Under the pieces are notes generated by a model. It searched no databases. It was given only the letters and a program-made list of their open reading frames with translations, and was not told where the DNA came from. A program made the position numbers and the translations under genes. Source: Vibrio tubiashii (GTDB taxonomy: Bacteria; Pseudomonadota; Gammaproteobacteria; Enterobacterales; Vibrionaceae). From it: a stretch of 32,000 bases of DNA. The DNA lies in NCBI GenBank assembly GCA_000775715.1, contig JRWQ01000001.1:510225-542224 (forward strand), given 5' to 3'. Positions 23,678 through 32,000 of the stretch are shown one piece after another. Position 1 is the first letter of the stretch. Each line of letters begins with the position of its first letter.

Positions 23678-23701
23678 CAAAAAAGGCAGATTTCTCTGCC
23701 T
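23678..23701 (-). terminator. Rho-independent terminator of the phn operon
   Basis: The minus-strand RNA reads AGGCAGA-GAAA-UCUGCCU followed by UUUUUGAU, 32 nt after the phnE stop. Confidence 0.8.
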
Positions 23702-23732
23702 TTGATATTGAACGCTTGGAACTTTTTGAACA

Positions 23733-24536
23733 TTAAATCAATTTCTTACGTACATGTACTACCAGCGCTTCGGCCAAAATAACGACCGCAAAAATGCTGA
23801 CTAGAACCATCGACACCTTTTGCCACTCGAATAGGTTTTGTGCGTCGTTAAGCACCACACCAATGCCGCCAGCGCCCACTAAACCAAGTACTGCTGACTC
23901 ACGTACATTAATGTCCCAACGGAACAACACAATCGAGAAAAAGGCTGGCATCACTTGCGGCCAGTACCCTTTGAACAAAATACTCATCCAAGGTGCGCCT
24001 GTTGCCTTTAGCGCTTCAATCGTTCCCATGTTCACTTCCGCAATCGCTTCTGCGAGTAGCTTGCCGACAAAGCCAACGCTTCGAACGGCAATCGCCATTA
24101 TCCCAGCTAGAACACCCGGACCAAACAGCGCAATGAACAACAACGCCCATACCAGCGAGTTAACGGAGCGCGACGACACTAAAAAAAACTGTGCAATCCA
24201 GTTCAACGTTTTGCTCGGGGTAATATTCGGCGCATTCAGTAATGCCAATGGAATAGCCAGTCCCAATGTGAACAAAGTACCCAAAGTGGCAATATGCAGG
24301 GTTTCAATCATTGCTGCGTGAATGGTTTGTGGGTAAAACGCGTAGTCTAGCGGTACCATTCGACCAAACATATCTGCAAACTGAGCAGGTGCGTCATAAA
24401 GAAACTCTGGAATGATCTCAACAGTCTGCCAAGACCAAACAATCGCCGAAACAAAACACAAATAAGCAGCGAACCTCGCGAGACGCTCGTTGAACGTAAA
24501 ACGTTGCCATTCTTTATCAATAGAAGCGGTTGTCAT
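23733..24536 (-). CDS. phnE: Phosphonate-type ABC transporter permease PhnE (second copy)
   Basis: 267 aa, multi-TM, with the PhnE-type EAA region IEALKATGAPWMSILFKGYWPQVMP. Start and stop overlap with the upstream phnE. Confidence 0.85.
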   Translation of the reverse strand: MTTASIDKEWQRFTFNERLARFAAYLCFVSAIVWSWQTVEIIPEFLYDAPAQFADMFGRMVPLDYAFYPQTIHAAMIETLHIATLGTLFTLGLAIPLALLNAPNITPSKTLNWIAQFFLVSSRSVNSLVWALLFIALFGPGVLAGIMAIAVRSVGFVGKLLAEAIAEVNMGTIEALKATGAPWMSILFKGYWPQVMPAFFSIVLFRWDINVRESAVLGLVGAGGIGVVLNDAQNLFEWQKVSMVLVSIFAVVILAEALVVHVRKKLI

Positions 24537-28900: not shown

Positions 28901-28915
28901 TGGGTCAATTGTGTC
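28901..28915. promoter_or_regulatory. Motif copy 3: TGGGTCAATTGTGTC (candidate enhancer/UAS), overlapping the activator stop codon
   Basis: Matches copies 1 and 2 at 13 of 15 positions. It starts exactly 59 nt beyond the -24 element of the GDPD promoter, the same spacing as copy 1. An adjacent 8-bp inverted repeat, CATCACAG (28874-28881) / CTGTGATG (28895-28902), abuts it. Confidence 0.5.
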
Positions 28916-30263
28916 TTGCGGTTTGCGACTTAAAACTGTCTTTGTCTAGTTGATGCTTTTTCATCTTTCGATACAGGGTTTTACGTGGCAGATTTAACCG
29001 CAGCGAAACCTCATTGATGTTGCCCGCAGTCTCAATCAGAGCTTCTGTTAGCACATTTAGCTCGTACTGCTCCATCTGCTGCTCAAAAGCAAACGCCTCA
29101 CTGCCTTGAGTTGAAGGTGCTTGGAGGTCAAAACCCTCACCCACAATACCTAAGACGAATCGATCAGCAACGTTTCTTAGCTCTCGGACATTCCCCGGCC
29201 AGTCATGACGACATAACTGCTGAATTTGTTCAGCATAGAGTGTCGAAGCTCGCGTTTTATATTTTTGACTCGCTTGAACCACAAAATGCCTAAACAGAGA
29301 TTGGATATCCTCTTTTCGCTGGCGCAAAGGCGGTAAATTCAAGCTAGCGATATTGAGTCGATAGAAGAGATCGGCCCTAAACTCTCCACGCTGACTTAAC
29401 TCAGCTAAGTCAGCTTTGCTCGCGGCAACGACAACAATATCGACAGGAATGAGGGTATTGCCTCCCACACGTTCAATCACACGTTCTTGGATAACTCGCA
29501 GCAGTTTAATTTGCACCGAAATTGGCATGCTTTCTATTTCATCGAGGAATAGTGTGCCACCATGCGCTTGCTCAATTTTGCCAATTCGCTTCTTATTGGC
29601 GCTGGTAAATGACCCGGCCTCATGACCAAACAGTTCGCTCTCAATGATGCTCTCTGTCATACCACCGCAGTTGATGGCAACAAACGGTTTATCGCGGCGC
29701 ATCGAGTAGCGATGTAAGGCACGCGCTATCACCTCTTTGCCCGTGCCAGTCTCTCCGTTGATGATGGTATCAACGCCGGTTCGAGCCAGAGCCAATACTT
29801 GACTGCGCACCATCTCCATCTGATTAGAGACACCAATAACGACATTCTCTATAGGTAGCTCAGGAGATTCCGAAGCCTGGCACGAAACACTCTGGACATG
29901 CGTCGAGGCTAAGTTGAGCTTTTCAAGTAACTCATCACTTTGCAATGGCTTCTCGATAAAATCAAAAGCACCCAACTTCATCGCTTCAATCGCCATGGGT
30001 ATATCACCATGACCACTCATCAAAATAACTTCACAAGCAGGCGCACGGCTTTGAATCGCATCCAGCATTGATAATCCATCAAGCTGAGGCATACGAACAT
30101 CGCAAAGCACAACTTGTTTGCTGTCGGGTACGAGCGACTTTAATCCCGCTTTAGGGTTGGTAAAGCTAGTTACGTGAAAGCCTTCAAGCTCTAACATTTC
30201 TCTCAGCGCCTCCACCACATCAAACTCATCGTCTATCAGGGTAACTTGCTTTTCCATTGTCAT
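28905..30263 (-). CDS. sigma54-dependent response regulator (NtrC/DctD family enhancer-binding protein)
   Basis: Receiver domain (LIDDE, VLCDVRMP, MSGHG, EKP). AAA+ domain with Walker A GETGTGKE and the sigma54-contact loop ESELFGHEAGSFTSA (GAFTGA variant). C-terminal Fis-type HTH NEVSLRLNLPRKTLYRKMKK. ATGA overlap with the kinase gene. Confidence 0.9.
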   Translation of the reverse strand: MTMEKQVTLIDDEFDVVEALREMLELEGFHVTSFTNPKAGLKSLVPDSKQVVLCDVRMPQLDGLSMLDAIQSRAPACEVILMSGHGDIPMAIEAMKLGAFDFIEKPLQSDELLEKLNLASTHVQSVSCQASESPELPIENVVIGVSNQMEMVRSQVLALARTGVDTIINGETGTGKEVIARALHRYSMRRDKPFVAINCGGMTESIIESELFGHEAGSFTSANKKRIGKIEQAHGGTLFLDEIESMPISVQIKLLRVIQERVIERVGGNTLIPVDIVVVAASKADLAELSQRGEFRADLFYRLNIASLNLPPLRQRKEDIQSLFRHFVVQASQKYKTRASTLYAEQIQQLCRHDWPGNVRELRNVADRFVLGIVGEGFDLQAPSTQGSEAFAFEQQMEQYELNVLTEALIETAGNINEVSLRLNLPRKTLYRKMKKHQLDKDSFKSQTARHN

Positions 30264-32000
30264 GATTTCACGCCTTTTAAATAAACTACAAACTCACTGC
30301 CCTGCTGTGGCTGCGAGCTCACCCGAATTGAACCGCCAAAATCCTTAATGATGTTAAAAGCGATAGAGAGCCCTAACCCCAAACCCTTGCCCACCTCTTT
30401 TCGGGTATAAAATGGGTCAAAAATATGGGGAATATCATCAGCTAAGATACCTTTGCCATTATCTTTGACCGCAATGGTGACTGACTCTTCCGATCGAGAA
30501 ACGGAGACCGAAATAACAGGTTCAGGGGTCATCTCAACAGCATCAATCGCATTACTGATGAGATTCACCAACACTTGCTCTAAGCGGATTGGATTGGCGC
30601 GAACACTTTCATTTGCTGAAAGGTTGCAGTCTAGAACGATAGGAACTTGCTTATTGGCAAACAGTTCGATGGCGTCATTCACGACAGGCATTACCGCAAC
30701 GGAAGAAATCTTCCCATCACTTTTACGTGAGAAAGCTTTCAAATGATGGGTTAACGCGGCCACCTTACCGAGTAAGGTTTCAATCTTATTTAAGTTATCG
30801 GTCGCTTTATCTAAACGATCTTGCTCCAACCACTTCTTCGCGCTGCGAGTATGGCTACTGATAGCAGTTAGAGGCTGATTTATTTCATGGGTGATACCAA
30901 CACTCAACTGCCCCAACGCAGCCAGTTTCCCTGCCTGAACGAGCTCATCTTGCGTCACTCTCAATCTCTCTTCTGCCAATCTTCGCTCTACCACCTCTGC
31001 TTCAAGTTTTAAGTTAGTTTTCTTAACCGCTTTCGCCGTAGCCTGAAACACCTGTAACGACTTTGCCATCTGGGTAATCTCATCCTGCCCTTTCACAACA
31101 ATGTTCGTATGTAAGTGCCCAGTGGAAATCGCGAACATATCGTCTTTAAGGTTGAGCAAACGCTCTAGTATATTTTTACGCACATAAAACCAAGCAATCG
31201 CGGCCGCCGCAATCAGACTGAGCATGGAAAGGACAAGTGAAAAGGTACGATTTGAAGCTAGTGACGCTTGTACATGAGCGATAGACGAGTCTATTTCTAA
31301 ATTCACGTTAGACGTATTGCGCTCGATCTGAACCGAAAGTTGGTGCAAATACTTTCGGCTATTTTCTAGCAAAAATTCCTGTTGATAATGATGCTCCAAC
31401 GCTTGATTTTTTAGTTGCACTAACCGACTTGAACGAGAGGCAAGGGTGTAAATAACCGAAAGCTTTTCATCCAATGCAGGTAAAGACTCCGCTAACCCAC
31501 TGGCTAGCCACAAGTTAAACCAGTCTTGCCCAAGCTGCTCCAATCGATAAGTGGTGTAATCCAACTCATTAAAACTGCCATCGTTATACAGCTTTTCAAC
31601 TAAACCTAACTGATAAAACAATAACGCTTTCAACTGACTATATTGCAGACGTGACTTTTGTTCTTCAGGTAGGCGATCTAGCTCTTCACTCACCTGCTGC
31701 AACAGAGGATAAAAACCTTCGAGCAAATTTCTTAGCTGCTTATTGAGCTCACGTGACTCTTCGCCACTTTGATAAAGCAAACTCAAACTGTTACTCACCT
31801 GCATGATCAGGTCTTTAAAGTAAGCGTGATACTCAGGAAAATGCGCAAGCACTCGGTTCATTTCATCGATGCTGTCTTCAATCCTCACCATAGAACTGCG
31901 CCTTTCAAGGTTTGAGTCCGCAGCCACAAGTTGAGAAGAGTCAGTAATCACCAAACGCACCATGTCATTCAATCTAGCGGCCTGCTCCAACGCAGGAATT
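30260..32000 (-). CDS. Sensor histidine kinase (partial; N-terminus beyond the right window edge)
   Basis: The frame stays open to position 32000. A ~250-aa Leu/Glu/Gln-rich region precedes the TM segment FSLVLSMLSLIAAAAIAWFYV. HAMP follows, then the H-box LSVGITHEINQPLTAI, N-box LVNLISNAIDA, and G-boxes DNGKGI and GKGLGLGLSI. Confidence 0.85.
   Translation of the reverse strand, partial: IPALEQAARLNDMVRLVITDSSQLVAADSNLERRSSMVRIEDSIDEMNRVLAHFPEYHAYFKDLIMQVSNSLSLLYQSGEESRELNKQLRNLLEGFYPLLQQVSEELDRLPEEQKSRLQYSQLKALLFYQLGLVEKLYNDGSFNELDYTTYRLEQLGQDWFNLWLASGLAESLPALDEKLSVIYTLASRSSRLVQLKNQALEHHYQQEFLLENSRKYLHQLSVQIERNTSNVNLEIDSSIAHVQASLASNRTFSLVLSMLSLIAAAAIAWFYVRKNILERLLNLKDDMFAISTGHLHTNIVVKGQDEITQMAKSLQVFQATAKAVKKTNLKLEAEVVERRLAEERLRVTQDELVQAGKLAALGQLSVGITHEINQPLTAISSHTRSAKKWLEQDRLDKATDNLNKIETLLGKVAALTHHLKAFSRKSDGKISSVAVMPVVNDAIELFANKQVPIVLDCNLSANESVRANPIRLEQVLVNLISNAIDAVEMTPEPVISVSVSRSEESVTIAVKDNGKGILADDIPHIFDPFYTRKEVGKGLGLGLSIAFNIIKDFGGSIRVSSQPQQGSEFVVYLKGVKS

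Follow-up and report, generated by a model that had tools for sequence, protein, structure and literature searches.

The 32,000-nucleotide stretch of the Vibrio tubiashii genome analysed here (contig JRWQ01000001.1, forward-strand positions 510,225 to 542,224; this whole stretch is called the window below) carries on its minus strand a sensor kinase and a sigma-54-dependent regulator, followed by a gene for a GDPD-family phosphodiesterase and a four-gene ABC importer operon, gpxBACD. The locus is likely to be an inducible module for scavenging glycerophosphodiesters and glycerol phosphates under the control of a sigma-54 two-component system (TCS). Its features, in the order in which the module is read, are as follows.

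30260..32000, minus strand: sensor histidine kinase (HK), 5'-truncated at the window edge with the frame still open
28905..30263, minus strand: sigma-54-dependent response regulator (RR) with REC, AAA+ and Fis-type helix-turn-helix (HTH) domains
28901..28917, minus strand: single predicted upstream activator site (UAS), AAGACACAATTGACCCA, 5' of the GDPD promoter
28826..28841, minus strand: sigma-54 (-24/-12) promoter of the GDPD gene, TGGCACGTTGCGTGCA
27504..28715, minus strand: GDPD-family phosphodiesterase, periplasmic or secreted, with a Sec signal peptide
27441..27462, minus strand: intrinsic terminator 3' of the GDPD gene, GGGCUUUCGAGCCC followed by U6
27374..27424, minus strand: two predicted UASs 34 bp apart, GGGACAGAAATGACCCA (distal) and TAGACAGAAATGACCCA (proximal)
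27299..27314, minus strand: sigma-54 (-24/-12) promoter of gpxBACD, TGGCACGTCCCCTGCT
26212..27252, minus strand: gpxB, PhnT-family periplasmic binding protein of the glycerol-1-phosphate/glycerol-3-phosphate (GpxB) type
25324..26109, minus strand: gpxA, ABC ATPase (annotated PhnC)
24536..25336, minus strand: gpxC, ABC permease (annotated PhnE)
23733..24536, minus strand: gpxD, ABC permease (annotated PhnE)
23679..23703, minus strand: intrinsic terminator closing the gpxBACD operon, GGCAGAGAAAUCUGCC followed by U6
22534..23352, plus strand: convergent HAD-IIB hydrolase gene, a possible accessory gene

The stop codon of the HK gene and the start codon of the RR gene share a 4-nt ATGA overlap. 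Within the RR, Pfam models identify REC (E = 2.5e-28), Sigma54_activat (6.2e-64) and HTH_8 (1.9e-9) domains together with AAA_lid, and the Walker A motif reads GETGTGKE. The predicted promoters of the two transcription units that follow each match nine of the ten positions of TGGCAC-N5-TTGC. Matches of at least 8/10, with invariant GG and GC, are found 5' of gpxB in all 17 gammaproteobacterial loci and 5' of the GDPD gene in all eight loci that have the Vibrio gene order, compared with 0.02 matches expected by chance per shuffled region. The two units are closed by hairpins of -9.7 kcal/mol (27441-27462) and -13.3 kcal/mol (23679-23703; z = -4.3), and an equivalent of the hairpin and T-run that follow GDPD was found in all Vibrio loci.

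The same type of activator site precedes both promoters. Exact copies of GACANNNNTGACCCA occur only three times in the 32 kb (27374-27388, 27408-27422 and 28901-28915), all of them within the two promoter regions, where 0.36 hits would be expected by chance even allowing one mismatch. Two lie before gpxB and one before GDPD; the latter overlaps the RR stop codon and has an equivalent in each of the eight loci with Vibrio gene order. The distance from the centre of the promoter-proximal site to the GG of the -24 element is 70 bp at both window promoters, and across the Vibrio loci site and promoter are 74-77 bp apart, counted from start to start. The site is a perfect GGGACA-N4-TGTCCC dyad in Zobellella, Motiliproteus and Oceanospirillum, and in the Vibrionaceae it takes the form (G/A)GACA-N4-TGACCCA. 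The predicted target of the RR in the window is GGGACAGAAATGACCC, with GACA and GACCC parts. Between the UAS and the gpxB promoter there is a 12/13 match to an IHF-like pattern (27332-27344), although this pattern is common in the window (53 hits compared with 40 expected), and no such match was found in the GDPD promoter.

The extent of this arrangement was assessed with a scan based on an alignment of six GpxB sequences, using one genome per species, and the 80 loci obtained were then queried by tblastn with the window proteins. Nine genus-level groups have a sigma-54 regulator, together with a kinase whose sensor domain is homologous, directly 5' of gpxB: Vibrio, Moritella, Psychromonadaceae, Veronia, an Oceanospirillaceae metagenome-assembled genome (MAG), Marinomonas, Oceanospirillum, Motiliproteus and Zobellella. 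The HK-RR-gpxBACD core, its promoter and its palindromic site are thus conserved from Vibrio to Zobellella. Vibrio splendidus and V. mediterranei have the order HK, RR, GDPD, gpxBACD and convergent HAD-IIB hydrolase gene, and their unrelated outer flanks mark the boundaries of the module. GDPD itself is an accessory gene. In Vibrio and Moritella it separates RR from gpxB, in Motiliproteus it is part of the operon and in Psychromonadaceae it sits 5 kb downstream; it was not found by tblastn in the gpxBACD loci of Marinomonas and Oceanospirillum. Further afield, Sneathiella has a sigma-54 regulator that looks orthologous to the window RR (41-46% identity), with a 9/10 promoter and GACA-N4-TGTC-like repeats. 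Other gpxBACD loci have different regulators, of the IclR type in Achromobacter, the GntR type in Arcobacter and the OmpR type, with a hybrid kinase and without a linked GDPD, in roseobacters.

An earlier, sequence-only reading of the window had placed HK, RR, GDPD and PhnD-C-E-E-like genes here, and ORF and domain calls found all of them at the coordinates listed. It also proposed two -24/-12 promoters with a shared upstream motif and two terminators, all of which are confirmed by the promoter matches, motif copies and hairpin energies above. Its description of the locus as a compact, self-contained sigma-54 regulon is borne out by the presence of one type of activator site at two promoters, in an architecture conserved across genera.

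The importer is where the same reading went astray. It had assigned the operon to the phosphonate/phosphite-type PhnD importers; we file it as GpxBACD rather than PhnCDE, on the strength of the E-values and contact residues of its substrate-binding protein (SBP), the identity of this protein to roseobacter homologues and the lack of phosphonate catabolism genes in the 32-kb window. GpxBACD was reported in PNAS in December 2025 as an importer of glycerol-1-phosphate (G1P) and glycerol-3-phosphate (G3P) (PMC12718374). The closest solved relatives of the window SBP are PDB 9lf9/9lfb (E = 1.3e-83); 9lf9 is the GpxB of Marinobacter sp. DSM11874 (PMC12718374), to which the window protein is 48% identical. 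Other members of the PhnT family are much more distant: PtxB (1e-27), E. coli PhnD (3e-15), ArrX (3.5e-13) and HtxB (1.6e-9). On the PhnD equivalog model TIGR03431 the SBP scores 133.9 bits and fails the cutoff of 261.1; the only model it passes is TIGR01098, which covers a broad phosphate/phosphite/phosphonate subfamily. It is also 54-58% identical to GpxBs of roseobacters, including P. pseudonitzschiae, one of the species whose GpxB has been assayed (PMC12718374).

The ligand contacts give the same picture. Eight of the nine are identical to those of GpxB and the ninth is a Thr-to-Ser change. All seven contacts to the phosphate head are kept (T118, G119, Y145, S175, N176, S177 and H205, corresponding to GpxB Thr111, Gly112, Tyr138, Ser168, Asn169, Ser170 and His199). 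Of the contacts to the glycerol hydroxyls, R229 is identical to Arg223, and Ser253, standing in for Thr247, retains a hydroxyl group; Ser and Thr alternate at this position among near relatives. Arg229 and Ser253 stand where PhnD has Glu177 and Asp205, which bind the amine of 2-aminoethylphosphonate. GpxB binds G1P and G3P without stereoselectivity, with affinities of 1-2.5 uM, and other C3 phosphates tested bound much more weakly or not at all (PMC12718374). The authors count 225 Vibrionales genomes among the holders of GpxB (PMC12718374). The names PhnD, PhnC and PhnE are family names here and are no evidence of a phosphonate substrate.

The following sequence of events would account for the locus. 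The GDPD enzyme, carrying a signal peptide, would hydrolyse glycerophosphodiesters (deacylated phospholipid head groups) outside the cytoplasm, and the freed glycerol phosphate (sn-3 and/or sn-1) would be bound by GpxB and imported via GpxACD. The membrane kinase would detect glycerol phosphate in the periplasm through a TorS-like helical sensor domain. The likeliest route would be docking of ligand-loaded GpxB on the kinase, as TorT docks on TorS and AioX on AioS, with direct binding as the alternative. The kinase would then phosphorylate the NtrC-type regulator, which is predicted to assemble on the GGGACA-N4-TG(A/T)CCC sites, two 5' of gpxB and one 5' of GDPD, and to spend ATP in opening the sigma-54 holoenzyme complexes at both -24/-12 promoters.

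The inducer is more likely to be the transported glycerol phosphate than the diester, because the TCS-gpxBACD core persists without GDPD in Marinomonas and Oceanospirillum and because the Phaeobacter genes are induced by G1P and G3P. In that organism GpxB was induced by G1P and G3P with log2 fold changes of 9.0 and 7.7, respectively, compared with 3.8 and 3.7 for MED193_19469 and 1.9 and 2.7 for the adjacent kinase MED193_19439, which is not discussed in the paper (PMC12718374). The Phaeobacter kinase belongs to an OmpR-type system, so these data lend support by analogy only. Regulation of GpxB was left for future study by its authors (PMC12718374); no later literature on this point was found, nor anything usable on this locus in any Vibrio.

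Several observations weigh against the proposed module and its parts. All the functional claims are predictions for Vibrio, drawn from sequences, synteny, modelled structures and a single publication on related proteins. The induction data just described stem from a different class of TCS, with an OmpR-type regulator and a hybrid kinase. The sigma-54 contact loop of the RR is a variant, GSFTSA, in the Vibrionaceae; its F-T core is kept, and among orthologues the loop grades from GSFTSA through GSFTGA to the canonical GAFTGA. The identity of the SBP to assayed GpxBs is only 48-58%, and the contact Thr247 is Ser in the window protein. The GDPD protein is far from characterised GlpQ (53.9 bits, compared with a cutoff of 254 for NF008354), its AlphaFold2 model is poor (pLDDT 58.7, from an alignment of orthologues of at least 78% identity only) and its substrate is assigned from context only.

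How the kinase would perceive its ligand is the part of the scheme with the closest competition. Full-length orthologues of the HK have about 650 residues, so the window protein, which is 100% identical to a V. tubiashii protein, is short of about 71 N-terminal residues including the first transmembrane segment (TM1). The orthologues consist of TM1, a periplasmic domain of about 270 residues, a second transmembrane segment, HAMP, HisKA and HATPase. The best NCBIfam models for the HK are PgtB (232 bits, cutoff 1000) and TorS (140 bits, cutoff 676), with both of which it is collinear, and the beginning of the TorS model gives a weak match (E = 2e-5) to its N-terminal sensor region. An AlphaFold2 model of the periplasmic part (window 31244-31999, 252 residues) is all-helical with a pLDDT of 88.5. 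In a Foldseek search of the PDB its top four matches are TorS sensor domains (3o1j, 3i9y, 3o1h and 3o1i), including TorS-TorT complexes, with TM-scores of 0.68-0.77 normalised on the query and 0.64-0.85 on the target, followed by McpS (0.46-0.65) and PilJ (about 0.45). Sequence identity of the sensor domain to TorS is 12-14%. The HK has no receiver or HPt domain, only HAMP, HisKA and HATPase, and no TorT-like gene is present at the locus.

From these data we tentatively favour, by analogy and with rather less than even confidence, a kinase that senses glycerol phosphate with ligand-loaded GpxB as its co-sensor, because the sensor has a TorS fold, AioX provides a precedent and GpxB is the only SBP in the locus. 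The main competitor, a somewhat less probable one, is that the kinase binds glycerol phosphate or the diester directly through its helical-bimodular domain, as McpS does with organic acids, and that GpxB has no signalling role. McpS and PilJ domains, the next-best structural matches after TorS, share the TorS-like fold and bind small ligands directly; Psychromonas orthologues of the HK match the 4HB_MCP_1 sensory module; and GpxB and TorT belong to different SBP classes. Since the fold is common to these direct-binding domains, the co-sensor step is not established. Set against direct sensing are the four best folds, all of them TorS with TM-scores clearly above those of McpS and PilJ, and the precedent of AioX, a PhnD-fold SBP that can act as a kinase ligand. 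The nearest sequence models, PgtB and TorS, also both use a periplasmic binding-protein partner, PgtC for PgtB and (according to PDB titles) TorT for TorS. The diester, in particular, is an unlikely signal, as the TCS is kept in loci without GDPD.

The phosphodiesterase belongs to Pfam PF03009 (84.9 bits, gathering threshold 23.6; E = 1e-23), and its catalytic and metal residues H65, R66, E92, D94 and H107 align with those of E. coli GlpQ, the standard set. Its start at 28715 is backed by a conserved ribosome-binding site and ATG, its Sec-type signal peptide was called by inspection only, and it is 95% identical to a V. tubiashii protein. In Zobellella iuensis the position between the regulator and gpxB is taken by a canonical GlpQ-type periplasmic enzyme (IVVAHRGASGYLPEHT...LVVLHDHYLD; L023:8287-9600) that is not orthologous to the Vibrio GDPD (27% identity). 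The Zobellella gene is preceded by its own palindrome and a 9/10 promoter, GGGACAACCCTGTCCC and TGGCATCGATTTTGC. That two unrelated GDPD branches were recruited into one regulon slot argues strongly, from context, for an enzyme that supplies the transporter.

What the Vibrio enzyme would hydrolyse is less constrained. It might act on other substrates, such as poly-glycerol-phosphate teichoic acid fragments, archaeal-type diesters or cyclic phosphates, and so set whether G1P or G3P is produced; this would fit a divergent protein of 403 residues with a large insertion and 54 bits to the GlpQ model, and a GpxB that is not stereoselective could import either product. We consider this improbable, however, given the standard catalytic residues of the enzyme and the presence of a canonical GlpQ in the same slot in Zobellella, which suggests that at least one class of substrate is ordinary glycerophosphodiesters.

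The convergent HAD-IIB hydrolase is a candidate cytoplasmic glycerol-phosphate phosphatase, a role considered because the paper on GpxB does not deal with what becomes of G1P inside the cell (PMC12718374). The gene adjoins gpxBACD in several Vibrio species (62-70% identity), and homologues of 35-41% identity stand beside gpxBACD in distant taxa, including a Burkholderiales MAG. It is the fifth gene of the gpxBACD operon in Arcobacter and lies 5' with an IclR regulator in Achromobacter/Bordetella (linked loci: L024:9648-10415, L056:8045-8941, L044, L061, L066, L068, L081 and L032). No sigma-54 promoter or UAS of its own was found for the gene in the window, and it is missing from several Vibrio/Moritella loci (L008-L012). 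A bolder combination, in which GpxB serves both as transport receptor and as kinase ligand and the HAD-IIB enzyme dephosphorylates archaeal-type G1P for glycerol metabolism, is doubtful, although not far-fetched. If true, GpxB would be the first transport SBP of the PhnT family known to signal to a sigma-54 switch, which would answer how marine bacteria regulate uptake of G1P and G3P, and the HAD enzyme would supply the missing cytoplasmic step for 'wrong-handed' archaeal-type G1P.

Control by phosphate starvation was also considered. The module could be primarily a Pho-regulon system like ugpBAECQ that the sigma-54 system only fine-tunes: classical scavenging by UgpBAEC and GlpQ is PhoB-dependent, in Phaeobacter as elsewhere, and PhnCDE-type systems are usually under Pho control. 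This is very unlikely here, as sigma-54 promoters, which both transcription units possess, stay silent unless their activator is present. No Pho box with three or fewer mismatches was found in the 32-kb window in a scan limited to the E. coli consensus, a limit that tells against our reading. In Phaeobacter, GpxB (MED193_19449) appears nowhere in the main text of a phosphorus-stress paper on the PhoB-dependent proteome, and it is induced by G1P/G3P supplied as carbon source (PMC12718374). Induction by an external ligand and not by phosphate starvation alone, as the sequence-only reading had it, fits the conserved sigma-54 architecture and the lack of a Pho box.

Least probable of all is that the importer carries a phosphonate, phosphite or phosphonolipid head group (for example, 2-aminoethylphosphonate freed by the GDPD) and that the TCS senses that compound. 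The Pfam and NCBIfam names (phosphonate-binding, PhnC and PhnE), an ATPase and permeases that exceed the PhnC/PhnE equivalog cutoffs, and the life of these Vibrio species with molluscs, which are rich in phosphonolipids, are outweighed by an SBP that fails the PhnD cutoff, lies some 56 orders of magnitude nearer to GpxB than to PtxB in E-value (PhnD and HtxB are further still) and has Arg and Ser in place of the amine-binding Glu177 and Asp205, by the absence of phosphonate catabolism genes, such as those for C-P lyase or phnW/X, both from the window and from the genes called at loci L001 and L003, and by the pairing of the Arcobacter operon with a GlpD-type G3P dehydrogenase.

That dehydrogenase gene lies in an Arcobacter MAG (L024:4205-5764, minus strand), where the FAD enzyme is divergent from and 5' of the gpxBACD-HAD operon with a GntR/UTRA regulator beyond it, an arrangement that links the transporter in an epsilonproteobacterium with the catabolism of glycerol phosphate. 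On Pseudosulfitobacter and Ruegeria plasmids (L085:4514-7740 and L086:4483-7688), gpxBACD is divergent from an OmpR-type regulator and a hybrid kinase of about 830 residues. This kinase has a transmembrane segment, a helical periplasmic domain of about 280 residues, HAMP, PAS, HisKA, HATPase and REC, and occupies the position of Phaeobacter MED193_19439. A short LFxLK motif is common to the periplasmic domains of the roseobacter and Vibrio kinases, although homology is not established. The hhalign probability of 99.7% between the Vibrio kinase family and the Ruegeria hybrid kinase was driven by the kinase core and was not taken as a sign of homologous sensor domains, where identity is 8%. In Veronia nyctiphanis (L040:6557-9774) the matches are partial, covering kinase residues 31-533 and regulator residues 127-445, and there is no GDPD; its two-component genes may be degraded or frameshifted. 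The genes 3' of gpxD in L016, L017 and L019 (AcrB, aminotransferase, ATP-grasp and MFS) were set aside as unrelated.

Further matches to the activator motif were noted outside the two promoter regions. In Marinomonas and Motiliproteus the palindrome lies 118-230 bp 5' of the kinase gene (L017:6351, L018:6395, L020:6326 and L022:6216), a placement that suggests positive autoregulation; none was seen there in Vibrio loci, and the window stops short of that region. In the Oceanospirillaceae MAG (L016:14324-14340 and 19430-19446), two perfect intergenic palindromes, GACATGGATGTC(T/C)C, lie 3' of gpxD, one of them 5' of a PF06189 5'-nucleotidase gene, and it is possible that they mark extra members of the regulon. 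A one-mismatch match, GACATAGCTGACCAA, at 23357-23371 (minus strand) falls within the inverted repeat GACATAGC...GCTATGTC just past the HAD stop codon and is probably a terminator stem and not a binding site. An 'activator site' that is conserved within the gpxD genes of Marinomonas and Oceanospirillum was rejected as a coding artefact of the PhnE-type peptide W-D-I-N-V, arising from TGG GAC ATn AAT GTC (L017:13339, L018:13337, L019:13422 and L020:13289, with an equivalent at window 23916-23929). Motif scans for this regulon will keep meeting this artefact.

The rest of the window consists of a cyclodextrin/maltodextrin utilisation cluster and housekeeping genes. The cluster (3475-16603) is unconnected with the scavenging module and includes a CymA porin (10775-11812), two GH13 amylases, one with CBM20, an SBP with two permeases, a MalK-type ATPase, and TrmB-like and ROK-family regulators. 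A 64-residue ORF at 23391-23585 (minus strand), between the gpxBACD terminator and the HAD gene, has no Pfam or NCBIfam match.

The sequence-only reading did not recognise the locus as a characterised system and held that a homology and synteny search might reveal a different regulator or substrate logic. The transporter half of that view has been overtaken, as the importer belongs to the GpxB family described as GpxBACD (PMC12718374), and in part the substrate logic does turn out to differ. The regulatory half stands: its logic had not been described before and is new, because the literature explicitly leaves the regulation of GpxB open. A candidate answer comes from this locus, in the form of a kinase, a sigma-54 activator, a site consensus and two target promoters in a large gammaproteobacterial group. 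GpxB-type transporters are reported in about 5-10% of surface-ocean cells and link the turnover of archaeal and bacterial membranes to the carbon and phosphorus cycles, and a co-regulated phosphodiesterase adds an upstream step to the pathway, which would begin with phospholipid head-group diesters. Hundreds of 'phosphonate ABC transporters' of Vibrionaceae are probably glycerol-phosphate importers, a systematic annotation error that affects what marine 'phnD' counts can say about the use of phosphonates. For vibrios associated with oysters and corals, the module suggests an inducible route for feeding on the phospholipids of host or prey.

Of the known systems, GpxBACD of Phaeobacter sp. MED193 and Marinobacter sp. 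DSM11874 has the same four-gene transporter as the window (PMC12718374). The roseobacter version is accompanied by an OmpR-type regulator and a hybrid kinase and has no linked GDPD, whereas that of Vibrio has a sigma-54 activator, a TorS-like kinase and a GDPD with its own co-regulated promoter. The E. coli glpTQ (periplasmic GlpQ, GlpT antiporter and GlpR repressor) and ugpBAECQ (PhoB-activated) systems follow the same logic, in which a phosphodiesterase is co-regulated with a dedicated glycerol-phosphate transporter. Their transporters, however, are of the major facilitator superfamily (MFS) and the CUT1 ABC type rather than PhnT ABC, their control is by a DeoR-type repressor or PhoB rather than a sigma-54 TCS, and the Vibrio GDPD is no orthologue of GlpQ (54 compared with 254 bits).

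Salmonella PgtA/PgtB/PgtC-PgtP likewise achieves exogenous induction of a C3-organophosphate transporter through an NtrC-family regulator and a membrane kinase. The window RR matches the PgtA model end to end at 300 bits, but this and the PgtB score are far under the cutoffs (650 and 1000), the Pgt transporter is MFS where that of Vibrio is ABC, and there are no PgtC- or PgtP-like genes at the window locus. A review of Salmonella bacterial enhancer-binding proteins makes no mention of PgtA, and no usable literature on its sigma-54 dependence was found.

In the TorS/TorT/TorR system for trimethylamine N-oxide (Vibrio parahaemolyticus and E. coli), TorS has the same stacked helical sensor fold and size as the window kinase (TM-score up to 0.85) and reads the ligand state of a periplasmic binding protein. 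It differs in that TorS, as a hybrid kinase, also carries receiver and HPt domains, TorR is of the OmpR type and TorT is a dedicated, non-transport SBP. In AioX/AioS/AioR, and also ArrX and ArxX, the kinase is believed to have a PhnD-fold SBP as its ligand, and the regulator binds 5' of an RpoN promoter. AioX is a sensor only, without ABC partners; the ligands are arsenic oxyanions and the target genes encode respiratory oxidases and reductases. ArrX is nevertheless a detectable sequence relative of the window SBP.

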